64,000 bases of DNA from Dictyostelium discoideum (lineage: Eukaryota), in assembly GCA_000004695.1 (NCBI GenBank), contig CM000151.3:2048001-2112000 (forward strand), read 5' to 3'. This document shows positions 9,584 through 63,066 of this stretch, in pieces. The stretch's first letter is position 1; each line of letters begins with the position of its first letter. The notes beneath the pieces are model-generated. The model ran no database searches and was not told the DNA's origin. It saw only the letters and a list, made by a program, of their open reading frames with translations. Both the position numbers and the translations under genes were made by a program.

Positions 9584-12371
<2,788 letters not shown>

Positions 12372-17310: not shown

Positions 17311-19345
<2,035 letters not shown>

Positions 19346-24142: not shown

Positions 24143-27100
24143 TTATTTTGAGTATTTGGCAAGGATATGATTGAATATCATTTGGATCAGGTTATTTTCA
24201 CCACCATTACCATATGACCCAATTGATTGAAGGAATGATATTTGTTCTTTTGAGATACCATAGGCTTTTTCAAAATTGTATTTTTGATCAAAGTCTAAAG
24301 TGTGGAAAGTTCTTAATTTAATACAAACTTTTTCATTAGAATCCATCACCATACGCTTCCACTGTTTAAAATTAACTTCTTTACAATTTCCACCTTTTTC
24401 ATTTTTTAATACTTGGAGAATTTTAACAGAATTAATAACTTCACCATAAACATTATAGATCTTTAATGAAGAATCTGAAGAATCTTTAAAGTTATCATTA
24501 AACATTATTTTAATTATATTATCGGCTACCCAATTCACAGGTGAACATAATAAATTAATATCTACTTCTTTATCAGATGGGAAATAACCTAATTTAAAAC
24601 TTGATTGAAGCATCAATTGAGTGATATCACCATAATGACCAATACCAGTATCAGGATTTGAAAATATACTTGGAGCTCTAAATATAATTGATGGAATTTT
24701 AAATCTTGATGATGCTTCAGTTAATAAAAATTCAGAAATTACTTTACTTTGCATATAACCTGTTGGTAAATTATTTATTGTTTCAAGTTTTGGAGTTGCA
24801 ATTGATCCATTAAATTCTTGATTGTAAAATACTGAAAATGTTGATATTGTAAGTATTGGTTTTGGTTGGTGGTGTTGTTGTTGTGTTGGTTTACCAAAAA
24901 GTGAAAGTTTAATAATTTCTTTTAAACTATTAACATTTACTTGTTTACATTCGTAATAATTTGCTCTTAGATTAATATCAGCACCACTATTTAAAAGTAA
25001 ATTTGTATTGTTTGAAATTAATGAATAATTATAATCAGATAAACCAAACTTCTTTTTAGTTAAATCTCCAACAATTGGTATAATTTTTGAAAGATGTTTT
25101 TCATTTAATTGTTTATAATATAATTGATGATGTTTTAAATTATTCAAAATCTCATCAACTGGATTACTAGATTTACTTTTATTTCTTAATAAACAATAAA
25201 CTACTGAACAACATTCCATTTGAATTAAATACCAAAGTAAATAAGCACCTAAAAATCCTGTACTACCTGTTAAAAATATTCTTAATTCATTTTCTTTAAA
25301 TTCTTTAATTTCTATTTGATTTCTTATTGAATTTGATGAAATTAAATTAAATTCATCATCATCAAGTTTAATTTCATTTTTCCAAAATTCTTCAGATTCT
25401 ATTGTTTTATTTTCAGGAATATTATTATTTTTTTTATTTTGTCGATGTTGTTGTTGTTGTCCATCACCAATTTTTAATTTTAATTGATTTGTAATTAATT
25501 TAATTGATGATGATATTGTGTTTGATTGAAGTTGTTGAATTGTAATTAAACTAGAGTAGATTTCTTTATCAATCCAATTTTTTAATTGAACTGTTAATAG
25601 TGAGTCTGCACCATACTCAAGTAATCTTAAATCTTGATTAATCTTTGATACTTCAATAGATAATAGTTCTGATAGTTTATTTAAAAATAAACTATCTATA
25701 CTTGTGTCATTTTCAATTTTTTTATTATTTGTTAATTCATTATTTTCAATTAGATTTGTAATGAAATCGAATTTATGTATCATTGGATGTTTTTTATAAT
25801 GTTCAAATAAAGTTTTAAAATTAAATGGTGATACTATTAAATTTGTAGATTGAAAAACATTTTGAATTTGTGAATCTAATAAACCCAATATCATATTGAT
25901 AGGTAATGGATACAAACCTTGGCCATCTAATAGCTGTGCAATTGATTCATTTCTTGAAACTAAACCTGCAGATTGAACAGATCCATAATTTGTACAAATT
26001 GAAGGTAAACCAATTGATTTCCTATATCTTGATAATGAATCTAATACTCTATTAGAACAAACATAAGAACATTGATCAACTGAACCAATTATTGATGCAA
26101 CTGATGATGATAATATAAATTGTTTTAATTTCCAATTTCTTTTTATAGATTGATTATGTAAATTAATTGCACCCATTGTTTTTGCACCATGTGAAATTTC
26201 TAAACTTTTCATATCGATTTCATTTACACCACAAAATGTAAATTCAAATGCAAAATGAAAAATTGAATCTATATTTGTTATTGTTTTTGAATTTCCATTT
26301 AAAATTTGATCAATTGCATTATCAACACTAATCGAATTACTAACATCAACACTCTTAAAATGAAAATTAATATGTTTATTCTTCTTTATTAATAATTCTA
26401 AACCCCATTTCATTGATGATTTTGAAAGAACTATAATATTTTTAACATTTTCTGAAAATTTAACAATCCATTTTAAAATTTCTAAAATAATACCAGACTG
26501 ACCTGTTACTAATATTGTTGAACCTAAATGATCTTGATTATTACTATTAATTTTATAATTTGTTTTTAAAATTGAAAAATTTGAATTAATTTGATTTTTA
26601 TGAACATCAATTAAATCACTTAGAATGTTAATATCATTATTTACAACTATTTTACCAATATGTTTACGTTTATTAATATATTCAATTGCTACTTTAATTG
26701 TTGAATTTGAAAATTCAGTAATTGGCATTAAGTTTAATTCATGATTTTCAATAGCTCTAGTTATTTTCTTTAACATTCTCTGTATTAATGTTTTTTCAAT
26801 AAATAATAATTCAACATTATGATAGCCAAAATTATATTTAAAATTATTATTATTTATATATTCATTTGGATTTAAATGAGTGATTGATAAATCTACAATT
26901 CTACCACCAATATTTAAACATTTGAAATTTGAATCCATATAATCACTTGATAAAGTATTTAATATTAAATCTACACCATGTTTATCTGATTTTAATTGTT
27001 TTAATTTTAACTTTATCTCTTCTGAATAGTCTTTGTTCATTGTTGAATAAATTCCAGTTATAAAATCACCATAGGTATTGATAAGGTATTGCTCTTTCTC

Positions 27101-30100
27101 TTTTGAACCTACAGTAACGAATATATGTGATTTATGACCTTTCCATTTCAATATATTCAATGCTGATAATCCTATACCACCTGAACCTGAATGAATTAAT
27201 ATTGATTCATTTCTTTTAATTTTTAAATTTCCAACATTAAATATTGAATGATATGATGTTAAATAAACACCTGGTATTGACGCTGCCTCAATATGATTAA
27301 TATTAGTTGGTTTATGGTAAATCTGATTGTAATCAACTATGATATGTGTTGAAGTTGTATCATAACCAATACCATAAATTTGATCGCCTATCTTGAAATC
27401 ATTAATATTACTACCAATGGCTGAAACAATACCTGAAAATTCCAAACCAAATTCTGGATCATTTATATCATTATTATGACTAACCATTTCAGGTGGTAAA
27501 AGTCCACAATAAAGTAAATAATCTTTATAATTTATACCAGTTGCCTTAACATGAACTTCTAATTGATTCTCTTTTAATGATTTCTTTGAATCTAAAATAA
27601 ACTCTAAATTTGGTGATAGTTTTGCATATAATTGATTGATATCATTTACAAATGATTCAGATATAACAAATGTTTTATTTAAATTTGAATTTCTCTTATA
27701 TCTTTCATAATAAACTTTGTTATCTCTAATTTTAAATTCTTTTTGAATGAATTTATTTGAATCTAATAATAATTGAATAGTATTATTTAATTCTTTATTG
27801 TTTATTGATTTTTGATCAAAATCCAAAGAGAATAAATTAAGTTGAGGAAATACTTCAAAATATCTTGCTGCACCAATTACCGAAGCTGATAAATAATTAA
27901 TATTATCAGAATTTAATGTAATTAAAACATTTTTACATTTTAAATTATTTGATAATAATATTTGATTAATTTGAATGTATTCTAATGTTACAAATTTGAA
28001 ATTATCAATTGTTAATTGATTAATTGCTTTTGTAAAATAAACAATTGATTTATCAGTAATAATTGATTTTTTAATTAATTCATTAAATTGTTGAACATTT
28101 GAAATTGTTGTTGTTGATACCTCTTTAAATAATGATAATTCATTATCACCATAGATAATGATATTATTATTATTATCATCATTAATTTGAGTAATTGTTT
28201 CAATATTGTTTAAATTTGAATAGATTGAAGGCTTTTGAGTATGTATTACATAAAAACTTGGTATTTCAATTGACATTATAACTTTAACTTCATTAAAACT
28301 ACAATCTAATAATAAATTATTCCAAGATTCTTTAGGCATACAACATCTATCTTTTCTTATAGTTAAATCTGTAAAACACCACCATTGATCGAATACACCG
28401 AATATATTATCTAATAAAATTGATTTATAAATTGGTTCTACAAATACAAGTTGACCATTTGGTTTTAATATTTCATAAATTTGATTAATTGGTGGTTTTA
28501 ATTGTTTAACTACATGTAATACATTTGACATTATTACAAAATCATAATATGATGGTTTTAACATTTGTTCAGTAATTAATTGCTTTTCAAGATTTAATGG
28601 TTTATAAATGATATGAATATTTTGATTTATATGTGAAAACTTGGATTTGGCATCTGGAATGAAGGATGGTGATATATCACTCCATGTATATTCTATATCG
28701 ATTTCACTATTTGGAAATTCTATCAATAATTCATTGATTTTATTTAATACAATCAATGATAATGATGCTACACCACCTCCAAATTCTAATATTCTAAATA
28801 CCATCTTTTCATTTAAATTTGGTAAAATTGATTCACTTATAATATTAGCAATCACTTGATTATGAATTTTAAGAATATGATAATTTGAATAGAAATTATC
28901 TAACATTCCATTGTCAAATAATGATTGAGGTGTATCATTTGAAGGATCGTCATCTATCAATGGAAATAACAATTTTGCAACGATTTTTGTTGATTTTAAT
29001 AATATTTCATAATGTTCTATATTATTTTCATTATAATAATGTTGATGATCATCAACATTATTAACATCAATAACACTATCTTTTAAGGTTTCAAAAATTG
29101 ATTTGAATAATTTTGAATGTTTATCATCATTTAAATATTTTTCAAGTAATTGAATTATATCCATTGATTTGATTATTTCTATATTAAGTTGTGGACATCT
29201 TTTAACTATATTTGAATATAATTGATTTGAAATGAAATTTTTCAAAATTGAAATGTCATAATTTTTAACTTTTTCATTCATCCTATCAGGTTCATCAAGT
29301 TGTTGAGTGAATTTTGAAGGTGATGGTATTGGTGAATCAATTAATTGATTATATGTTGAATATAAATCATTTAATGGTGGTTGTATTATTGATGAATCTT
29401 TAATTATTGTTAAAGATTTACATACTAATTTATTCATTTCAATTAAAATTCTACCATCTTCAAACATAACTATGATTGAACTTGAAAATGAATCTCCTAT
29501 TCTTTTAAAACTATATGAATATGAATATAGTTTAATTTCTTTATCAGATGATAATTCTAAAAATGATGGTATATTTGATGAATAATATTTAAATCCTTCA
29601 ACTTTTTCAAATACTAATTGACATTGTTCATCAACTAATCCAACTGAACTATGTAAACAAGAATCCAATACTGATGGTGTGAAAAGAGTTGATGATGATG
29701 GTTTAATTGGTATAACAGCTAATGAACAATCATCACCTAAGTAACACTCTGAAACTGTTTGAAATTCACCATTGTATGATAATCCAGTTTTTGATTTAAT
29801 ATTTTGATATAATTCATTCTTTGTTAATTTTGTTAAATTACATTTATTATTAATTAATTCTTGAATATTATACTTTTTATTTACATTATTACCACTTGTA
29901 AATAATTGGAAATTACCATTTGATGATTGTACCCATTCATTTGATTTATTATCTTTAAAATGGAATTGTACTTTAAATTCAGTTTTACCAGTTTGAAATA
30001 TATTTGTTTGTAAACATTGATTAATACCATCTATTAAAATTAATGGTGATTTAAATTCCATTGAACCAATAGTCAAATCTTGTGATGGATATAATTTCAA

Positions 30101-32535
30101 TAGATTATCAATATAACCACAACCTGGGAAATAGTATTTACCATTCACAATATGACCTTTAAGATATTTGAATGGTTTCTTACTAATATCAATAAATGTT
30201 TGATATGATTTAACATTTGGTGAACTTTCAATTAATGAAAAACCAAGTTGGTCAATTGGAGGTCCTTGAAATTTGTGTTTTTGTTGAACTAAATCTTCTT
30301 TCCAATATTTTTTATCATCCCATTGATAATTTGGTAATATTATTTCTTGATTATTATTATTATTAATTATTTGCTCATCTTTGAATTGTGATTTAAAATT
30401 GATGTTATATCGATTATCACAATAAAGTTTAGCAATTGTTTTTTGAATCTCTTGAATATCATTCTTTTTCTTATGAAGTGCTGAATATATTGAAACTTTG
30501 AAATTAGTTTCTTCAGTAGTTGACAAAGATGATACAGGTATCATTTGTTTTAAATAAAACTGTAATGTTGGATGTGGTGCTAATTCAATGAATACAATTT
30601 CATTTCCTAATTTATTTATTTCAATATGTTTATATAAATTTGAAATTGTTTGGGAAAATTTAACTGGTTTTATTATGTTATTATAAACATATTCGGAGTT
30701 GAATGGTGTTGTTGAAGATTCGTATAAATTTGTTGTTACTGTTGAAAAAATTGGTATTGTTGGTGATTGATGATTAATGTTTAAATTTAAGATTTGATCT
30801 TTTGTAATCTTTTGATTTGAAGTATGGAAAGATGATAATGAAGCTAACATTGTTGAGAAAATTCCTTTATCTTTTAATTCATTTGATATTTGATTTAATT
30901 GTTGTTCATTACCTCCCAATACAATTGAATTTGGTGAATTGTAACATGCAATTTCAATATCTGGGTATTTAGTTGAATAATTTGATGATAAATAATCTTC
31001 AGAACTAATACCAATTGATAACATTCTACCACCATTACAATGTGTTTCAATTTGTGCTAATGATCTATGATAAATTAAATAACATAAAGTATCCAATGTA
31101 ATCATACCTGAGCAATAGGCTGCTGGAATTTCACCTAAACTATGACCAACTATAAATGATGCTTCAATACCCCAATGTTTATATAATTCGAATAATGATA
31201 TCGTTAACATACAAACTATTGGTTGTGCAATTGTTGGATGTTGAATACTTCTATCTCCATCATCTATAATTGATCTAAATTTATTTAAAACTGAATATTC
31301 ATAATACTTTAATAGTTCATCATCTAATAAATCCATTGATTTTTTGAAAATTGGTTCATTATTATACAATTCCAATGACATTGTATTATATTGTGAACCT
31401 TGACCCGCAAACACAAATACAGTAATTGGATTATTTTGAACTTTTGACATATTTGATGATTGTGTATTAGATGTTTGAATTTTATTTGTTGATTCAATAT
31501 TTTCACTAAATTCATTCCAATTTGAAGCAGTAACTACACAACGTTGGTAAAGTGAACTTGATTTACTAAAAATTTGTTGTTTAACAAACTCTTTAAAATC
31601 ATTTGATTTTTTAAACAAATAATCATTAACCACCGATTCATACTGTTTTAATGATTGTACTGAATTTGCAGAAAATGGTACTAAATACTGTTTTTGAGTT
31701 TGTAAATTTTTTAAATCTTCACTATGTGTGCAACTGTTTTTGTTGTTGTTGTTTTTATTGTTACCTTTGTATTCTGATAAAATTAAGCAACAATTTGAGC
31801 CGGTAATACCAAAATTATTTAAAATCATTGAAAAATTATCAGTTTTTTGGAGATCTTTGAAATGGATAGGTTCTGTAACAACTTTTAAATTCCATTCGTC
31901 AAATTTAATTGATGGATTTGGATTTTTAAAATTAATATTTGGTGTTAGATATTTGTTTTTAAACATTAAACAACATTTAACCAATGATGCAGAACCTGAA
32001 GCTGCTTCTAAATGACCAATTGAACTTTTAATTGATCCAATTAATAATGGTTGTTGACTTAAGGTGGAATTATTTGAAGAATGTGTTTTAAAAACTCTTG
32101 ACATTCCATCCAATTCAACTGGATCACCAGTTGGTGTACCGGTACCATGTGCTTCAATATAAACTATATCTTCAAGTTTCACAGTTCCATTGGTTGATGA
32201 AAATGCATTATTAACATTATCAGCTTGTGATATTGATGATGGTGAATAAAAGTTTTGTTTATCTTTTAAACCGTTACCATCAACATTTGAACTTGCACCT
32301 TTAATAACACAATAAATGTTATTACCATCTGCAACTGATTGTTTTAAACTCTTTAAAACTAATAACGCAACACCTTCTCCTCTAACGAATCCATCTGCAC
32401 TTTCATCAAATGTCATACATTTGCCTTGACTTTTACTTAACATATTCAAATATGAAAAAGATTTTGATGAATTTGTTTCTAAAAATCATAAAATAAAATA
32501 AAATATGTTAGTATTTAAAAAAGTTTAAAATAGAG

Positions 32536-32577
<42 letters not shown>

Positions 32578-33242
32578 ATACCAAATAATGAATTTACACC
32601 TCCAACAATTGATAAATTTGAGAAACCACTTTTAATTGATTGATAGCCTAATCTTATTGCATTTAATGATGATGAACATGCAGTATCTATAGTTATTGAT
32701 TCACCAGAGAAATCAAAACAATGTGATATACGATTTGCAATGGTACTTAATGCCGATCCAAAAACGTTTGTTTGTGTTGAATTTGGATTTTTGCTAATAT
32801 CTTTATAATCAACTGATGTACAACCAATGAAAACTGATGTTTTTGAACCACGAATTTTGATTGGATCAATATTTGAATCTTCTAATGCTTCCCATGTACA
32901 TTTTAATAATAATCTTTGTTGTGGATCAATAGTTGATACTTCAGATGGATTAATACCAAAAAATAATGGATCAAATGATTTCCATTCATCAAGTGGTAGT
33001 AAACCTGCATTTCCATTTGAAATTTCACCCAATTCATTAAAATTATCGCTCCATCTTTCAGTGGTTTTAACAACACCATCAAATCCATTCATTAAATTAT
33101 TCCATAATTCTTTTGTTGAATCATTTGATTTACTTAAATCTCCTGATGGTAATCTGAATCCAATTCCAATAATTGCAATATCATCCTCGTTTTCATTTGG
33201 TTTCGCTAGTTTATAAGATGATAAGTTAGTATTGTTTGTCAT
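24143..33242 (-). CDS. Iterative type I polyketide synthase, about 2998 aa: KS-AT-DH-cMT-ER-KR-ACP-C-terminal NAD(P)-binding reductase (R) domain; 2 exons
   Basis: Exon 1 is 33242..32582 (MTNNTN...; KS active-site DTACSSSL; phase 1, GTATGT donor), the intron 32581..32479 and exon 2 32478..24143. Total is 8997 nt, a multiple of 3. Motifs with approximate nt positions: [13 protein letters not shown] about 32155; AT GHSLGE about 31147..31130; [13 protein letters not shown] about 30155; methyltransferase [13 protein letters not shown] about 28790; [16 protein letters not shown] about 27190; [16 protein letters not shown] about 26515; [16 protein letters not shown] about 25610; R domain [15 protein letters not shown] about 25280. 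No thioesterase or chalcone-synthase domain, so it is not a Steely-type hybrid. Confidence 0.9.
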
Positions 33243-33847
33243 TATTAAAAAAAAAAGTGAAAAAGTTAAAAATAAAAAAAAAAACAAATTTAAAATGATA
33301 GAAAGTTAATTATTGTAAGGTTGAAAAAATAATGGAATACAAATAAAAATAATTTCTATTTAAATAATTGGGTACAAAAAAAAAAAAACTACATTTTAGG
33401 GAATTTACGATTTTAGATAGGTGTATGTCGTGAAAAAAAAAAAAAAATTTAATAAAAAAAAAAAAAAAAAGTCTTTTTGTCGGAAAAATGTATTATGAAA
33501 ATAAAAAATTAAACCCCACATTAACATATTAATTAATTATTGGATTCACACTAAAATGTTAAATTTTTTTTTTTTTTTTTTTTCAAAAATTCTTTAAATT
33601 TATAAAGATTTTCGAAAAAAATAAAAAATAAAAAAATAAAAAAAAAATCAAATAATTTTATTTGCCAAATCTCATTATATCTGAAATTAAATCTCTAATT
33701 TGAAAATATTTTTGTAAGCTTTATCTTTTGCTTGAAAATAATTTTTTACAAGATAAGAAAAATATATTTTGTTGTTTTTTTTTATGGGAGTAGATCAACC
33801 CAAACTTTTATTTTTTTTTTTTTTCTGGTCTGGTTTTATGAAACTCG

Positions 33848-33934
33848 TCAATGGGTTTGTTTTTGTTTTTTTAATTGTGGGTGTTGAGATTTTTGATAAA
33901 TTGGTTTAATATTTTGAAAATTATTTTCAATTTC

Positions 33935-33991
<57 letters not shown>

Positions 33992-34099
33992 TGGTTGTTG
34001 TTGTTGTTCATTTGGTTGTTTAGGTTGCTTTGGATGTTGGGGTTGTTGTGGCGGTTTTGCTTGTTTTGCTCGTTGTTCTCTTGGTAGTTTTGGTTGTTT

Positions 34100-34180
<81 letters not shown>

Positions 34181-34426
34181 TGGTTGTTGTTGTTGTTTTG
34201 GTTGTTTTGGTTGTTTTGGTAGTTTTGGTTGTGGTTGTTCTCTTGGTTGTTCTGTTTGTGTCGATTTTTGTTGTTGCTGTTGTTGTTGATATTGTTTAAG
34301 ATGCTGTTGGATTAAAGCTTGATCTTGGTCTTCCAACTCTTGTGTGGTTTGGTATTGAACCTGTTGTGCTTTCATTTCAAGTTCAGGTTTAAAATTATTA
34401 AACCTGTTTGATTTATTTTGATAATG

Positions 34427-34519
<93 letters not shown>

Positions 34520-35841
34520 ATTAAAAATACTATTTTTATTATTATATGAACTATTATTATATAAATTATTATTATATAAATTATTTAAACAATCTTTAAT
34601 ATCATCAGAAGATTGTAGTTTTAATTCTGAATTAAAGAAATGATTATTTCTAAAGGTATTAATTAATTTATATTTAAGAGGAGATATATTTCCGCTATTG
34701 TTATTGTTATTATTATTACTATTATTATTATTAAATAGCTCTTCATAAAATTCAATTGATCTATTTGGAAGTATATTAAAAAATAAAGTTGGAGAGAATT
34801 GTAATTGTGATTGTTGATAAGGTGTTAATTTTGATTTATCAGTTTTAGTATTAAATAGAGTTGTTAGAGTATCAATTGCATCTGATTTTCTAAATTCTTT
34901 CTCCATTCTCTTTCTATCCATTATATTAAAATGTGGTGTTTCCTTATAAATTGGATGATAAATGGTTGGAAATAAATGTTTATTCGAATAGTCAATTAAT
35001 AATATACCAAATAATAATGGTACTGGTGGTAATGGATTCTTTAAAATATTTGAATAATTTTGAATTTTTAATAATTCTCTTTCAATTTCACAAATATCAA
35101 AATTATTATCATTATTACTATTATTATTATTATTATTATTATTTAGAAATCTAATTGGAAAATTCTTAAAAACTTCTGATGAAATAACTGATTTAATTGG
35201 AAAACTAAAATTAAAATCATTACATTTACCACCAAAATAATTTATGTGCCAAATTAAACCATAAAGATAATGATTTAATAAAATGTCTTTTTTACTATAA
35301 GCTGCTGCTGTAGTTGTTGTTGTTGTTATTGTTTCCTTTTCATTCATTTTAACATCTCCATCTTCATTTTCAATTTCATTTTCAATTTCATTCTCATTTT
35401 CAATTTCATTCTCATTTTCAATTTCATTTTCTTCAAAATCTTCATCTTCGTCTTGATTATCATCTTCATCTTCATCATTCTCATTACAACCATCATCCTC
35501 TTCTTCACTATTATCATCAGCATCATTATCATTACAACCATTTTTAACAGAAGTGAATAAATTGTATAATTTATAAATATATTTCTCTTTAATAATATTT
35601 ATATTTGATTCCCAAAATGGATGATTTATAGATAAAAATGATCTAATTAAATAATCTATATCATTTGATGAATCTACTATTTTATTTTCAATGATGATAT
35701 TATATCTTGTTTTTATTTTACTATTACTACCATTTCCCTTATCTTTTTCACATTTAAAATTTTGAGTTGGTTGACTTATTCCTTTTGATAAACAATAATA
35801 ATTACCTGCGTTATTAAATAATGATTTTAATATTTGAGGTG

Positions 35842-35937
<96 letters not shown>

Positions 35938-35970
35938 GCTGTTGCTGTTGTTGATTATTGTTAACATCGC

Positions 35971-36055
<85 letters not shown>

Positions 36056-37389
36056 AAAACGATTACGATAAAATAAACGTGGTTGTGAAGATTTTCCAAT
36101 TAATCTAAATAATAAATCTAAATTTATTAAACCTGTTTCTTCATTATATAATGGTTTCTTAATTTTACAATATTCACTCCATGCTGAGCCTATATTATAT
36201 GATGATACTTTTGGTAAATGATCAGTACCCATTAAAAATGTTAACATTACGAAATCAACTATTGCTTGTCTTCTTTTACTAATATCTTCTTCTTCCTCTT
36301 CTTCTTCCTCCTCTTCTTCTTCAATTTGCACCCCTTCTTCTTTTTCCTCTGTTGCTATTCCTTCACCTTCTCCTTCCACTTCTCCTCCTGATTTTTTTTG
36401 TTGTTTTTGTTTTTTTTGTTTCTTTTTATAACATTGTTGATAAATTTTATCTCTAATTTTATCAATTTTAATAATTTCTTCAGAATCTTTATTATAAATA
36501 TAAACATTTTTATATTTTGATAATAATGAAAATAATAAAATATCTGAATCACTAATAATAATAATAATAATAATAAAAATAATATTAATAAATGATTGAT
36601 GATAAACTATTATTATTATTGTTATTATTATTATTTTAATTAATACATACCTTGAAACTATTGTAAATGAATCATTTATTGGATAATTTGAATTTAAAAT
36701 TTGTTCGAAAATTTTAAATTCTCCTTCACCAATTCTATCAGATGCAGAAATAAAAATCTTTTTTGCAAAATATAATTTATTCTTTGTATAAAATATTAAA
36801 AAATCTTTTAATTTACCCATAAATGTAGTACCTGGTGTGAATTCTAATGTTGAGAATGAGCTATCAAATGATTTTAAATCATTTTCATTTAAATAATCAT
36901 AATCGTGAAGTTGAGGTGATTGTTGTTGTTGCTGTTGTTGCTGTTGTTGTTGCTCTTTATTTCTATTTATAAAATATTTTAATTTATCTATATTCCCATT
37001 CTATATAATAATAAATAATAATAATAATAATAAAAATGTTGTATACTACTATTAGTAATTGATGTATATATTTTATATTTTATATTTTATATTTTTACCT
37101 TTAATCTTCTTTCTCTTTGTAATATCATTTTTGATCTAGGACCAGGACCATCAATACCAAAGAATACGGAATGTTTAACACGAACTTTTCTTAAAATTCC
37201 ATCTATAAAAGATTTTAATATTCTAAAAACATTTACTTCTGTATTTAATTTGGAATTATCTCCCCTTTTAACTGATTTATGTAAATAATTATTTAAATCT
37301 ATATATACATGATCGGTGGTAATTTCTTTTACTTTTTCAACACAACCAAATTGTTTACCCATGAATAAATTTAATCCCTCAATACCCAT
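33848..37389 (-). CDS. XRN-family 5'-3' exo(ribo)nuclease-like protein, divergent, about 1114 aa with very long poly-Q/poly-N/acidic inserts; 3 exons
   Basis: Exon 1 is 37389..37099, intron 37098..37001, exon 2 37000..36651, intron 36650..36552 and exon 3 36551..33848. Phases check (291+350+2704 = 3345 nt). Conserved XRN N-terminal-domain motifs are present: YIDLNNYLH (compare YLDMNGIIH), GIDGPGPRSKMILQRERR (compare AIDGVAPRAKMNQQRSRR), TPGTTFM, IGEGEFKI (compare PGEGEHKI), ISDSDILL (compare GLDADLIM), FLMGTDHLP (compare FVGNDFLPH) and YGLIWHINYF. The N-terminus MGIEGLNLFMGK is not the canonical MGVPKFFRW. Confidence 0.65.
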
Positions 37390-37727: not shown

Positions 37728-39495
37728 TTATAAAGAGGTACCACTAAATATGGAGAAAGGGTTAGATGGAGTATTCTGATTTTGATTTATTGTGATTGGT
37801 GACCACTCTCCAAATAATGATTGTGATTGTGACTGTGATTGTGGTTGTGTTTGTGGTTGTGACAATTGATTAAATTGTTTTGTTGGATTATTTTGTTGTT
37901 GAACTGATAATGGCCCAAATGATGTAAAAGGTAGTTGTTGTTGCTGTTGTATTTGTTGTTGTTCATTTTCATCATCTTTAAAGTTTGAAATTGTATTAAA
38001 CATTTCCCTTAATGATTTCAAATTACCTTGATTATCATTGTTTTTAATGTTATCATCATCTTCCTCATCTTCATTATTATTATTATTATTATTGTTGTTA
38101 TTGTTATTATTATTATTATTTTTATCAGAAGTTGAGGTTGTTGTTGTTGTAGTTGTGAATATTGATTTATTTGATAACTTTTGAATTTGATTTTGAATTT
38201 GATTTTGAATTTGATTTTGTTGTTGTTGGTGTTCTAGTATTAAAACTCTTTTCATTAAATCTTGAATTAATTTATCCTTTTTTTTATTCTCTTTATAGAA
38301 AGAATCTCTAGTTAATGAATTTGAATGTTTTATTATTGAAATTTCGAAATTCTGATTCACATTATTTTGTTGAATTATAGTTTCAAGTTTTTTAATTTTA
38401 TTTTCTTGTTTCTTTAATACAATCGATACCAATTCATTATGATATTGATGATTTCTAATGAAATGTTTTGATAATTCACTCCTTTTCATTAATTCATTAC
38501 ATGGTGATAATGGTATTATTGATGATGATAAAGATGATGATGATAATGATTGATTTGAGTTGTTTTCATCACTATCATTATTATCATTATCATTATTATT
38601 ATTATTATAAATAATTTTTAATGATTTAAATGGACATTCAATTTTAATTTCTTTACAATGATTTTCAATATGATTTTGTAATTTTAATCTTGTAAATTGT
38701 AAAGAACAATGTTGACAAGTAATTAAAACTTTTAAACATTCAAAGAGGATATGACCTTGCATTTGTTTCATTTGAACAGATTCATCACAATGGGTACATT
38801 TTTGAATGATGAAATCACATTGACTTTCATGTTTATCCCTTTCATTAAATCTAATTATTTCATTACATTGATTATTTATTGAACATTTGATAAATCTAAA
38901 TTCACATTTACTTTCATGTCTATCAATTTCATCAATTGTAATAATTTCTTTACATCCATTAAAGTTATTACTATTATCAAAATTTAAATAATTTGGACAA
39001 TGAATCTGCAATAATAAATTTTGAAATTATTAAATTGTTAAATATGTTAATTTTAATATTAATTTTTTTTTTGGAAAATGTGAATGTGTGTGTGTTGGGA
39101 AGCGTGAGATTCAACTTGGGAAATTTTATTTTATTTTTTTTTTTTTAAAAAAAGATTTATTTAATATATATAAAAGTTACTTTAATAGATTCAGATATTG
39201 ATTTAATAATAAATAAATTATTTGAAAGAGTATTCATTGATTGAATTTGAATTCTGCAAGTTGGACATTCACTTTTAATTTCTAATATACTTTCCCAACA
39301 AGTTAAACAAAAACAATGACCATTAATACATTGTAATGCTTTCATTCTATTTGGTATTAAACTACTAATAAGTAAACCTTCACAAATTTGACATTTAAAA
39401 TTATCTGAAAATGAAATTTCTTTTAAATTATTTTCTATACTTTCATTTTTTATTATTATAAGTTTATAAATTGGTATATCTCTACCCAATTTCAT
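37728..39495 (-). CDS. RING-finger + TRAF-type zinc-finger protein (TRAF-like E3 ligase), 530 aa, 2 exons
   Basis: Exon 1 is 39495..39181 with the C3HC4 RING CQICEGLL...CINGHCFCLTCWESILEIKSECPTCR (GTAACT donor), the intron 39180..39006 and exon 2 39005..37728. Exon 2 carries repeated TRAF-type C/H zinc-finger units (HCPNY..C..H..C.F..C...C....R..H...C, three times), a coiled coil, and N-rich and (QNQI)n tails. Confidence 0.7.
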
Positions 39496-51807: not shown

Positions 51808-53319
51808 TTAAACCATTGTTACAAGTTCTTCTCTAAATTAATTAATTTATGATTTTTTTGGTTTTTTTTTTTTTTTTTTTTTTTTGGTTAGTATAAATTA
51901 ATATTGGATTTTTTTTAAAAATAAAATTAATAAAATTAATAAAACTTACGCAGATGTTGGATGAATTGCACAAGTATTATCCAAATCCCATTTTGTACAA
52001 CCCATTTTAACAGCAACAGCAAAACCTTGAATAATTTCATCACAACCATCACCAATAATGTGTAAACCAATAACTTTTTCCTCTTTACCTAAACAAACCA
52101 ATTTCATAGAGGTTCTAACTTTATGAACTTGAACTGAATAAAACATATTGATGAATGAGGTATTGTAACATTTGATATTTTCAGTACCATACTTGGTGAT
52201 TGCTTCTTGTTCGGTTAAACCAACGGTACCAATTGGTGGATGAGAGAATACAACAGTTGCAACATTTTCATATTCGAATTTCAAATCGGATTTTCCATTG
52301 AAAAGACGTTCAGAAAGACGACGACCAGCAGCGATTGCAACTGGTGTTAATAAAAAGTTACCACAAATATCACCAACTGCATGGACACCTGGTACATTTG
52401 TATTTTGGAATTCGTCTACTTTAATGAAACCACTTTGTTCTGTCAATTGAATACCAGCCTTGTCAATACCCAAATCATCAGTATTTGGTACACGACCAAT
52501 TGCCCAAATTACACATTCAACTGGTGGTAATTTTACACCTGCGTTTGTGGTGGCAATGATTCTCTTTCCATCGACATCTCTTTCCAATGATTTAATGGAT
52601 GCTTCAGTTACAAATTTGACACCATCGTCAGTCATTTGTTTCAAAAGGGTAGTGTGTAACATTTCATCAAAAGTACGAAGGAATTGTTTTTGACGGATCA
52701 CCATTGTTGTTTCGGAGCCTAATGAATGTAAGACACCAGCCAATTCCACTGCGATATATCCAGCACCGACTACCAATGTTGATTTTGGTAAATCTTCCAA
52801 CTCAAAGAATCCATCTGATGTAATACCCAATTCTTTACCTGGTACATCTGGTACAGTTGGTCTACCACCAGCTGCAATTAAAATATGATCAGCTGTATAC
52901 TTTTCACCGTTGGCACCATTGACTTGAATCTCTTTTGGTCCGCTAAATCTACCATAACCATTGATTCTAACGATATTATCTTTTGCGAGATTTGAGTCAT
53001 AAATTCCATTCAAACGTTTGATATATTCATCACGTGCTTTCTTAATTGTTGGCCAATTGAATTTAACTTGTTGACCACCAAAATCAAAACCATAACTTGG
53101 TGCTGCATTAATCATCTCTTTAATGAATGATGTATTCCACATAACTTTCTTTGGTACACAACCAACATTTACACATGTACCACCTGGTCTTGTTACCTCT
53201 ACAATACCAATACGATCTCCATTACCTTTAGCATTTAAATGTTTTGCTGCTCTTCTTGCTGATGCAATACCACCTGATCCTGCTCCTAAAACTAAATATG
53301 TAAAATGATTTGTTGAACT

Positions 53320-53322
<3 letters not shown>
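51808..53322 (-). CDS. gsr: Glutathione reductase (pyridine nucleotide-disulfide oxidoreductase class I), 465 aa, 2 exons with 25-nt terminal exon
   Basis: Exon 1 is 53322..51950 (ends ...AIHPTS + GC, GTAAGT donor, phase 2), the intron 51949..51833 and exon 2 51832..51808 (A-EELVTMV-stop). Total is 1398 nt. The N-terminus carries the FAD-binding GAGSGG motif, the redox-active disulfide [16 protein letters not shown] sits about 53181..53140, and the HPT motif near the C-terminus. Confidence 0.9.
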
Positions 53323-60353: not shown

Positions 60354-60886
60354 AACATCAACAATACCATTAGGATCACAAAAGCGTATAAATATTACAT
60401 CATTTTCAGGTCACAGAATTACTAGAGTAGTAAAATCTCAAAATAGTGAGAATATTTCAACCTCTTTATCAAAATCAAATATATTATTTAACGATTTATT
60501 AAAGAAACCAATTAATGAAATTTTAGAAGAGATAGAGAATATTGTAAAATATTTTTATTAATATATTTATATTTATATATTATAGTAATAATAATAATTA
60601 TAATAATTATAATACTAATATTTTATTTCTCAGGAATCATTAAAATTAAAATCAGAATTAATTAAAAATTCAAATTCATTAACGCCAACCAAATCAAAAG
60701 GAGTTAGTGAAGAGATAGTAAAGAATAAAGACAATAGATTATGGGTAGATAAATATGCACCAACATCATTTCATGATTTACTTAGTGATACAACTATGAA
60801 TTTAGAAGTACTAAATTGGTTAGAATTATGGGATCATATTGTATTTGATAAACCGTTATCAAAAAATTTAATAATGCCTTCAACTT

Positions 60887-60959
<73 letters not shown>

Positions 60960-61430
60960 TAGTAGTAGTACAGGTGGTGGATATTTTAATAAATTTAATA
61001 GTAAATTTACAACAAGTAGTAATAGTAATCAACAACATCAAAACCAAGGTCAATATTTATTACAAGAGGATGGAACACCAATTGCAAAGATTATACTTTT
61101 AACAGGTGGACCAGGTTTAGGTAAAACCACATTAGCACATGTACTCGCTAAACAAGCCAATTATAATCCAGTGGAAATCAATGCAAGTGAAGATAGATCA
61201 GGTGAAGCATTTGAAAGTAAATTATTATCAGCAATTGAAATGAAATCATTATTCAATGATAATAAACCAAATTGTTTAATTATTGATGAAATTGATGGTA
61301 TTTCAGGTCGTGATAATGGTCCAATTGAATTATTAATTAAATTAATTGATAATAGTTTAAAATTAGGTAATCATAAAAAGTCAACTACAAACCCAGCCGC
61401 TAAAAAATCAGCTGGAAAAGATACAGAATC

Positions 61431-61470
<40 letters not shown>

Positions 61471-63066
61471 CATGAAGACCAAGATGAAGATGATGAAAAA
61501 TCAACAAAAACCAAAGGTAAAAAAGGTAAAAAGAAAGGATTTACAACAAGATTACTTAGACCAATCATTTGTATTTGTAATGATCAATATGTACCATCAT
61601 TAAGAAAACTTAGACAAAAAGCAATGGTATTTGATTTTCAAGCACCAAAGAAAAATGATTTATTATCAAGATTAAAGGTAATTTGTTCAAACGAAGGATT
61701 ATCAGCAACTGATGCAACTTTGAATGCATTAATCGATATGACAGGTAGTGATATTCGTGCGTGTATCAACTCTTTACAATTTATTAAATCAAAAACTACT
61801 GTATTAAATTCAGAATTATTAAAGAATAAATCAAATATTGTAATTGGTCAAAAAGATATGGAAAAAGGTTTAGTTGAAATTTGGAATAATATTTTTAAAA
61901 GTTCAAGTATTACAAGTTCAACTAATAAATTATCAAAATATTCAAATACTATATCATCATCGTCATCATCAATTGATTCTATTAATAGTATTAGTAATGA
62001 TTATTTAAATCAATTAGATTTTCAAATTGGTGCATGTAATCAAGTTGATAAATTAATTGATGGTGTTTATGAAAATTATTTAACAAATATGTCAAGTGAT
62101 TATACAATGCAGAAAACAATGGATTGTTTGGATTGGATGGTATTTGGTGATCAAATGTTAAATGTTCATGCTGATGAAAAGTATCGTTCTCTAGTTCCAT
62201 TGGCAATTCATCAACGTTGTTCAACTTATTCACCAAAGATACAATTACCTCATTCCGATTATGATAATTTCATTAAAAAGAAATCAAACTCAAATATTAA
62301 AGATTCCTTTTACTCAGATTTACCAGCCACAATCTATTCTTATCTTACAAAGAAATGCTTTGTCATTGATTTCATTTACCCATTTGTTGATATACTTTCC
62401 TTACCAGTACGTGTTACAAATGTTCAATTGTATAGCCAAACAGAGAAAACCAATTTAAATCGTTTGGTTGAAATTATGAAATTCTATAGATTATCTTATA
62501 AGTTGGAAAAAGTAAATAATTTTATCAAACAACAACATCAACCACAAAAAAAATTAGTTGATAGTCTGGATGAAAAAGATGATGAAGAATTACAACGTAA
62601 TAAAAAACAACAAAATCAACAAACTCAAGATATAACAATGCAATATAAATTGGAACCACCTATTGATACTTTATTATATTTTCAAAATCAAAATCCAAAA
62701 ACTATGGTAAAACATATTCGATTATCTCATAGTCAAAAACAAATTATTTCTACAGCTGTACAACAATATAAACCACCTCAAAAATCAACTACTACCACCG
62801 CCACCGACACCACCACTACTGTTAAAAATGATGAAAATCAAAAACAAAAAGATCAATTGAAAAAACCAATACCAACAAAAGAAGAATTCAAAAAACCTTT
62901 GGTACCAACAGTTTTAAAAGATTTCTTTGGTAGAGTCATTCAAACATCACCAGAAACTAAAAAGAAAACTATGGAAGCAACAGCTGGTCCAAATATTAAA
63001 TATAGATTCCAAGAAGGTTTTACAAATGCTGTTAAGAAAACAGTGTATGTAAAAGATTTCTTGTAA
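60163..63066 (+). CDS. ctf18: Ctf18/Chl12 (chromosome transmission fidelity 18), RFC-like AAA+ clamp-loader subunit; 937 aa, 2 exons
   Basis: Exon 1 is 60163..60543 (127 codons, GTAAAA donor), the intron 60544..60633 (acceptor tttctcag) and exon 2 60634..63066. The Ctf18-specific motif reads RLWVDKYAPTSFHDLLSDTTMNLEVLNWLELWD (compare human LWVDEFAP..LLSDD.TNR.LL.WLKLWD). Walker A reads LLTGGPGLGKTTLAHV, followed by DEIDGI, an SRC-like region, and poly-N and poly-D inserts. Confidence 0.75.

Follow-up and report, generated by a model that had tools for sequence, protein, structure and literature searches.

An intact Dictyostelium discoideum gene for a predicted non-canonical XRN-family exoribonuclease, additional to Xrn1 and Xrn2/Rat1

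The gene described here occupies positions 37389–33848 of a 64,000-nucleotide stretch of the Dictyostelium discoideum genome (assembly GCA_000004695.1, contig CM000151.3, forward-strand positions 2,048,001 to 2,112,000). This whole stretch is referred to as the window and the gene product as the window protein; the gene and all of its features are on the minus strand. In textbook accounts, most eukaryotes possess a cytoplasmic and a nuclear XRN. With a probability of about 0.75, we read the gene as an intact one for a non-canonical XRN nuclease that is extra to Xrn1 and Xrn2/Rat1 and is predicted to be a 5'-phosphate-dependent 5'-3' exoribonuclease with a specialised substrate. Within the XRN family, its place is in an uncharacterised side branch that is conserved across the social amoebae, and it is not a new kind of system.

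The Pfam XRN_N domain (PF03159) matches residues 1–233 of the window protein over positions 1–238 of the 241 in the profile, with an E value of 1.8e-41 and a score of 142.6 bits, far above the cutoff of 22.9, bearing out the XRN-family identity proposed in the original prediction. XRN_M gives a weak match in the single-sequence scan (20.3 bits, below the threshold of 23.8), and nothing beyond these two was found in a Pfam scan at E ≤ 1. A phmmer search of PDB sequences returns XRN2/Rat1 and XRN1 only (E = 9e-15 to 3e-7). In the phmmer alignments to solved XRNs, Asp31, Asp80, Glu189, Glu191, Asp215, Asp217, and Asp324 fall on the catalytic residues, which are listed in a classification of the PIN superfamily as D55/D104/E205/E207/D235/D237/D336 in Schizosaccharomyces pombe Rat1 and D35/D86/E176/E178/D206/D208/D292 in human XRN1. 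By the same alignment offsets, Lys87, Gln91, Arg94, and Arg95 are the counterparts of the phosphate-pocket residues K93/Q97/R100/R101, and His37 is the counterpart of His41 (the roles of the 5'-phosphate pocket and of His41 are described in PMC8850482). The seven acidic residues, the four pocket residues, and Lys193 are near-invariant across 131 family sequences; at the position of His37, 101 of the 131 relatives have His and 23 have Tyr. The seven nuclease motifs quoted earlier are all present and in order (at residues 29, 79, 152, 188, 214, 322, and 644), and the claim that the catalytic acidic residues are intact stands. The canonical N terminus, by contrast, had been described as lacking, and here the description has to be changed. 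The N-terminal sequence MGIEGLNLFMGKQF aligns from position 1 of the XRN_N profile and with Xrn1 chains from residues 5–9, and it forms a helix at residues 6–14 in the AlphaFold model, in a block where the predicted local distance difference test score (pLDDT) is 92–94. The helix is thus present and in register, and its sequence alone has diverged.

The AlphaFold model was calculated for a 703-residue construct from which the homopolymer and acidic runs had been removed, with the 131-sequence alignment as input, and has a predicted template-modelling score of 0.75 and a mean pLDDT of 75. The pLDDT exceeds 90 for most of conserved region 1 (CR1, trimmed residues 1–320) and is mostly 85–96 in conserved region 2 (CR2), except for one loop; confidence is low in the middle module that lies between the two regions and in the C-terminal tail. 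When the model was compared with the PDB by Foldseek, the first 27 chains were all XRN2/Rat1/XRN1 (E = 1e-18 to 1e-13, target-normalised template-modelling (TM) score 0.33–0.65), the best of them with E of about 1e-18 and TM scores of 0.5–0.65. A second tier, EXO1/FEN1/XPG, begins at 4e-6. The family profile aligns with solved XRN2 and XRN1 structures (5FIR and 3PIE) through both CR1 and CR2, with E values of 2e-90 to 1e-79. In the model the protein has an XRN fold, with CR1 and CR2 predicted to form one catalytic domain. CR1 (36053–37389, residues 1–380) comprises the XRN_N nuclease core and the start of the helical domain and is interrupted by two inserts, one poly-Q and one acidic. CR2 (34727–35320, residues 625–822), which was matched at 35278–34736 in tblastn searches with the orthologues, includes YLYGLIWHINYFGGKCNDFNFSFP, PLPPVPLLFGILLIDYS, and the terminal β-hairpin SQLQFSPTLFFNILPNRSIEFYEE. 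The canonical CR2 motif YxxGLxWxxxYYxxGCxSWxWYYPYHYAP reads YLYGLIWHINYFGGKCNDFNFSFPIKSV in the window protein, and KPFxPxxQLMxVLP reads NPLPPVPLLFGILLIDYS.

From these residues we infer both the activity and the RNA substrate: the product is most likely an active, Mg2+-dependent and 5'-monophosphate-dependent 5'-to-3' exoribonuclease. In such an enzyme the basic pocket would admit only a 5'-monophosphate end, the stacking histidine would form part of the same catalytic core, two-metal catalysis would take place at the acidic cluster, and hydrolysis would run 5'-to-3' on RNA.

The gene comprises three exons. Exon 1 (37389–37099) encodes residues 1–97, with the N-terminal helix, Asp31, His37, Asp80, and the phosphate pocket (K87/Q91/R94/R95), and was matched at 37389–37102 by tblastn with the orthologues from D. 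purpureum and P. violaceum. It is followed by intron 1 (37098–37001; 98 nucleotides, GT..AG, 9% GC), which comes after QRERRLK and is at the same place in D. purpureum. Exon 2 (37000–36651) encodes residues 98–213 and the first two bases of the Ser214 codon and includes the poly-Q run, TPGTTFM, and GEGEFKI with Glu189 and Glu191. Intron 2 (36650–36552; 99 nucleotides, GT..AG, 8% GC) is in frame and has no stop codon. Exon 3 (36551–33848) supplies the last base of the Ser214 codon, residues 215–1114, and the stop codon, and contains Asp215 and Asp217, Asp324 (in GTDHLP), the remaining inserts, CR2, and the tail. The spliced reading frame has 3345 nucleotides and encodes 1114 residues, ending with TGA at 33850–33848, with zero internal stops, and both introns, at 8–9% GC, compare with 21.5% GC for the window. 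Removal of intron 2 restores TIVSSDSDILLF, which aligns without a gap to the homologue sequence LVVGSDSDLLLF, and the spliced QRERRLKN and VSSDSD motifs are likewise gap-free relative to homologues. The D. purpureum orthologue has both introns at identical positions and phases, and the tblastn matches of the orthologues are confined to the proposed exons. The gap-free junction, the matching D. purpureum intron, and the confinement of the matches to exons indicate that intron 2 is real, and the three-exon model of about 1114 residues put forward earlier is upheld by the uninterrupted frame and by the intron positions kept in D. purpureum. A mechanical list of open reading frames gives one of 990 residues, since the frame runs through intron 2 without meeting a stop codon. 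If retained, the intron would insert 33 residues, mostly hydrophobic, directly ahead of the catalytic SDSD.

Homologues were gathered by profile searches, a near-full-protein query having been swamped by low-complexity words. At a threshold of E ≤ 1e-3, an exhaustive profile search of 1.84 billion representatives gave 7712 proteins resembling XRNs, and the best 150 of these are overwhelmingly non-canonical, with L/V/F/I/Y/W in place of His after GEGE, DGPGP or DGPAP, and GNDYLP. The closest relatives are dictyostelid and come from six genera (Dictyostelium, Polysphondylium, Acytostelium, Cavenderia, Heterostelium, and Synstelium). They include the D. purpureum orthologue DICPUDRAFT_18829, at 51–56% identity, P. 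violaceum CYY_000544, Cavenderia fasciculata DFA_04210, Heterostelium album PPL_01155, and proteins from Acytostelium subglobosum and Synstelium polycarpum. Identity among the dictyostelid orthologues is 25–56%, and several are labelled "Xrn1 N-terminal domain-containing protein" in UniProt. We read the gene as being under purifying selection; at protein identities of 40–56%, synonymous sites are saturated. The next-closest group by score consists of cellular protist genes, among them Willaertia magna ABK040_002437, whose neighbours encode PGI, a V-ATPase proteolipid, and MsrB, and another that sits on a 2.7-Mb eukaryotic contig. The gene had been called a third, lineage-specific member of the family. 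"Lineage-specific" holds only in part: the gene is conserved in the six sampled dictyostelid genera, and its next-closest relatives are in other protists such as Willaertia magna. "Third" is not sustained, since two species carry a further paralogue of the same clade at a greater distance, DICPUDRAFT_158467 in D. purpureum and CYY_007490 in P. violaceum; by analogy, the D. discoideum genome may hold a fourth XRN-family gene, outside the window. Two of the public models deserve comment. DICPUDRAFT_18829 (L002 8001–10451, GL870953.1) is annotated as a 310-residue partial protein, and the same frame runs on into CR2 (L002 9840–10451; tblastn, 45% identity); the deposited model is therefore truncated. 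In CYY_007490 (L001 2737–5426), a COX17 domain is annotated before an XRN_N domain without the first acidic motif, and the public model is probably two merged genes.

Homopolymeric or acidic repeat makes up about a third of the window protein. The inserts comprise a poly-Q run (36923–36955, residues 113–123, in exon 2), an acidic run within CR1 (36281–36406, residues 263–304), a poly-N/poly-Q run (35843–36052, residues 381–450) that consists of an AAT array at 35971–36053 with 100% matches and a CAA array at 35843–35962 with 93%, and an acidic D/E-rich run (35357–35536, residues 553–612) with an ENEIEN repeat of 18-nucleotide period and 3.9 copies. This tandem-repeat analysis confirms the poly-Q, poly-N, and ENEI-type acidic inserts of the original prediction. 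The middle module (35537–35842, residues 451–552) is at the site that is occupied by a double-stranded RNA-binding domain (dsRBD) in non-dictyostelid relatives and contains an HPFW motif common to the dictyostelids. The C-terminal tail (33851–34516, residues 893–1114) is poly-N and then Q/P/K-rich, and has no counterpart among the non-dictyostelid homologues. The poly-Q, acidic, and poly-N/Q runs occur in no homologue of the alignment and lie between conserved blocks; they are therefore, most likely, insertions into surface loops or linkers, of a kind typical of this genome, and not functional modules. The segment with the poly-Q run of exon 2 is possibly the tower.

Four other readings of the gene were weighed against that of an extra XRN exoribonuclease. 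One is that it is a fast-evolving orthologue of Xrn2/Rat1, or of Xrn1, in this organism. Xrn2/Rat1 chains (such as 3FQD of S. pombe Rat1 and 5FIR of Caenorhabditis elegans XRN2) are the top structural matches of the window protein, its size is between those of Rat1 and Xrn1, and it shares with Xrn2/Rat1 the XRN_N fold, CR1 and CR2, the seven acidic residues, the K/Q/R/R pocket, and the stacking His. However, GEGEHK is replaced by GEGEFK, DGVAPR by DGPGPR, and SWxWYYPYHYAP by the degenerate DFNFSFPIKSV, identity is 13–17%, and the E value against Rat1/Xrn2 is only about 1e-14. A published survey gives, in a supplementary table, a separate D. discoideum Xrn1 (XP_643245.1, E = 4e-177 against the yeast enzyme) and a separate Xrn2 (XP_646407.1, E = 4e-82; reverse match Rat1p, 8.9e-136), in agreement, from the literature only, with the expectation that canonical xrn1 and xrn2 are elsewhere in the genome. 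In a rough neighbour-joining tree (412 well-occupied columns, 60 bootstraps), to which trimmed reference sequences of kinetoplastids, Giardia, Trichomonas, and Naegleria were added from the alignment of the published survey, a canonical clade of all GEGEHK sequences and XRNC excludes the window protein with 93% bootstrap support. Likeness to Xrn1/Pacman (2Y35, 3PIE, and 9E70) extends to the catalytic core with its residues and, from residue 5 onwards, to the N terminus, which is in register. However, the structured core comprises about 700 residues as compared with at least 1200, and the C-terminal D1–D4/SH3-like domains of Xrn1 (PF18332, PF18334, and PF18129), which the true Xrn1 matches in the profile searches carry, are absent from the window protein by Pfam at E ≤ 1. 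These comparisons indicate that the window protein is an orthologue of neither Xrn1 nor Xrn2, as had been proposed, and make this reading exceedingly unlikely. A nuclease that is active in another mode, on DNA 5' ends or flaps in the manner of FEN1/EXO1 or as an endonuclease, is also unlikely, if less so. FEN1, XPG, and EXO1 start with MGIxGL and the window protein with MGIEGL; a FEN1-like meaning of this start was considered and rejected on the Pfam and Foldseek results. XRN_N does belong to the FEN-like PIN group, EXO1 and FEN1 rank next to the XRNs in the structural comparison, and yeast Xrn1 can cleave single-stranded DNA according to the PIN-superfamily classification, but the same source describes the characterised XRN_N members as purely 5'-3' exonucleases. 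Neither XPG_N nor XPG_I is found in the window protein by Pfam even at E ≤ 1, the E values for FEN/EXO1 in Foldseek are weaker by 12 orders of magnitude, and conservation extends to CR2 and to the 5'-phosphate pocket that is specific to XRNs.

The repeat content, the 25–56% identity among dictyostelids, and the dispensability of kinetoplastid XRNB and XRNC would suit a decaying or non-catalytic relic, whether a pseudogene or a scaffold that no longer acts as a nuclease and is accumulating repeats of low complexity. Against this are the absence of any frameshift or stop over 3345 nucleotides, the conserved intron positions, the retention of all catalytic and phosphate-pocket residues in nearly all of the dictyostelid sequences compared, and the restriction of the repeats to sites between conserved blocks, where no homologue has them; we consider a relic very unlikely. 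Least probable of the four is a recent acquisition from a giant virus or an integrated viral element. Amoebae are hosts of giant viruses, and the giant-virus XRNs (Mimiviridae mimiCOG CLS10010; Fadolivirus and Indivirus) resemble the window protein in having a non-canonical XRN_N, often without the GEGEHK His; the family profile ranks these proteins of about 480 residues above most canonical XRNs. Many IMG/VR contigs of giant-virus metagenome-assembled genomes (L005–L037) share the exact GEGEFKI and DGPGPRxK with the amoebal proteins. However, the giant-virus matches (Fadolivirus, Indivirus, and many giant-virus metagenome-assembled genomes) are 21–31% identical at best and cover residues 1 to about 330 only, and the viral proteins form a separate clade that excludes the window protein with 98% neighbour-joining bootstrap support. 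The gene also has two spliceosomal introns in common with D. purpureum, a host-like composition, and ordinary cellular neighbours, and it is present in all six dictyostelid genera sampled. An ancient exchange of non-canonical XRNs between viruses and protists may nevertheless have occurred.

Several observations weigh against an active extra XRN as the product. The His of canonical GEGEHKI is replaced by Phe; F/W/L/V/I at this position characterises the non-canonical clades. By our motif count, the counterpart of Cys201 in Xrn1 is Thr; Val is found there in several XRNs, one of which, mouse Dhm1, is enzymatically active. Identity to the solved XRNs is only 13–17%, and the confidence of the model is low in the middle module. 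The poly-Q run is close to a functional element, in the segment that follows the helix of the phosphate pocket, and the acidic run within CR1 is directly upstream of the GTDHLP helix. Finally, the separate canonical xrn1 and xrn2 of D. discoideum are known from the literature table and not from a direct search of the genome.

Sequence comparison places the window gene in a large non-canonical XRN assemblage that includes kinetoplastid XRNB and the giant-virus XRNs. Like XRNB, XRNC, XRNE, and XRNF of kinetoplastids, the window protein is an extra and strongly diverged XRN that keeps the catalytic residues and has no recognised domain beyond XRN_N. XRNB resembles it in the MGxxGL start, in GEGE[L/I/V]K, and in NDSDL, but in the neighbour-joining tree XRNB is in another non-canonical clade, near one with a Cyanophora protein, where the deep nodes are unsupported; XRNC is placed with the canonical sequences. 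Pairwise scores are weakest, among all references, to XRNB, and those against kinetoplastid XRNA–D and the Giardia and Trichomonas references do not discriminate between subfamilies. The robust clades of the tree are the canonical and viral ones only, and the deep non-canonical nodes are without support. Among the kinetoplastid proteins, the nucleolar XRNE, described as "highly diverged", is needed for 5' processing of 5.8S and 18S rRNA (PMC3854532), whereas XRNB and XRNC are dispensable. The kinetoplastid precedent, together with C-terminal parts unlike those of Xrn1 and the coexistence of canonical Xrn1 and Rat1, points to a specialised role, so that by analogy the window protein probably has a particular RNA-processing or decay task and does not serve bulk mRNA decay.

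The closest non-dictyostelid proteins by score, the protist XRN-dsRBD proteins (for example Willaertia magna ABK040_002437 and the EukProt and metagenome proteins P0001, P0006, and P0012), share with the window protein DGPGP, GEGE[F/L/Y]K, xDSD, Y..G..W...Y..G.C, the CR1-linker-CR2 layout, and the terminal β-hairpin. The pattern hPKSxL...GxGxSKKxAxxxAAxxAL is present in the alignment in most members of this group, and Pfam dsrm is matched in three of its 39 members (best E = 7e-9). When the profile of the non-dictyostelid linker was compared with the PDB, the matches were Staufen1 (6e-10), TARBP2, ADAR2, Loquacious, PKR, RNase III, and DGCR8. The AlphaFold model of P0001 (pLDDT 85.6) has, at residues 310–370, a helix followed by three strands and a second helix. 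On this evidence from profiles and models, the CR1-CR2 linker of the non-dictyostelid relatives is identified as a genuine dsRBD. The dsRBD of P0006 is at residues 345–378, and the Willaertia magna gene lies at L003 8001–10298. In the dictyostelid proteins, a different or degenerate module takes the place of the dsRBD. The window protein has no Pfam dsrm match, the profile of the dictyostelid mid-region, with its own ..DHPFW motif, aligns with that of the dsRBD of the relatives at an hhalign probability of 0.2%, and the AlphaFold model of the middle module is a low-confidence helix...hairpin...helix. The suspicion, raised by the relatives, that the window protein might have a degenerate dsRBD was dropped as unsupported by Pfam, hhalign, and AlphaFold. 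Neighbour-joining bootstrap support is 17% for dictyostelid monophyly, 12% for the orthologue subgroup, and 0% for a clade of the dictyostelid and XRN-dsRBD proteins. Searches of the literature collection available to us found no paper on an extra XRN of Dictyostelium or on XRN-dsRBD fusions.

A more tentative possibility, which we think doubtful, is that these proteins represent an ancient, undescribed third cellular XRN lineage extending across amoeboid protists that are not related to one another (Dictyostelia, Heterolobosea, and uncultured eukaryotes). Its ancestor would have had an internal dsRBD that targeted the exonuclease to double-stranded or structured RNA, genes might have been exchanged with giant viruses, and the dictyostelids would have kept two paralogues with the dsRBD remodelled. 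Candidate targets would then be small-RNA precursors, viral or transposon dsRNA, and rRNA spacers. In animals, dsRBD-containing partners of XRN2 target decay in trans; the built-in dsRBD of the relatives suggests an unexplored targeting of 5'-3' decay to structured RNA. To our knowledge, functional studies of extra, highly diverged XRNs are limited to kinetoplastids. An extra XRN with intact catalytic residues, conserved in Dictyostelia and present in a genetically tractable model, makes roles of XRN side branches directly testable, and possible roles include rRNA maturation, control of small RNAs and retrotransposons, and defence. The advance is incremental in that neither the enzyme family nor its mechanism is new, the orthologues are already machine-annotated as XRN_N, and diverged extra XRNs have precedent.

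The neighbours of the XRN gene in the window are ordinary cellular genes. On the minus strand are genes for a TRAF/Sina-type zinc-finger protein (37728–39011), a glutathione-reductase-like flavoprotein (51946–53322), and a SUN-domain protein (9584–11086). The plus strand has genes for an RFC1-like AAA ATPase (60796–63066) and for arginyl-tRNA synthetase (17311–19345), the reading frame of the latter being broken by a run of poly-AAT that is probably intronic. Directly downstream of the XRN gene, on the minus strand at 24143–33287, is a type I polyketide synthase gene that is very large and is split by a short intron into at least two open reading frames; its product has KS, AT, methyltransferase, ER, KR, and ACP domains and a C-terminal NAD_binding_4 reductase.

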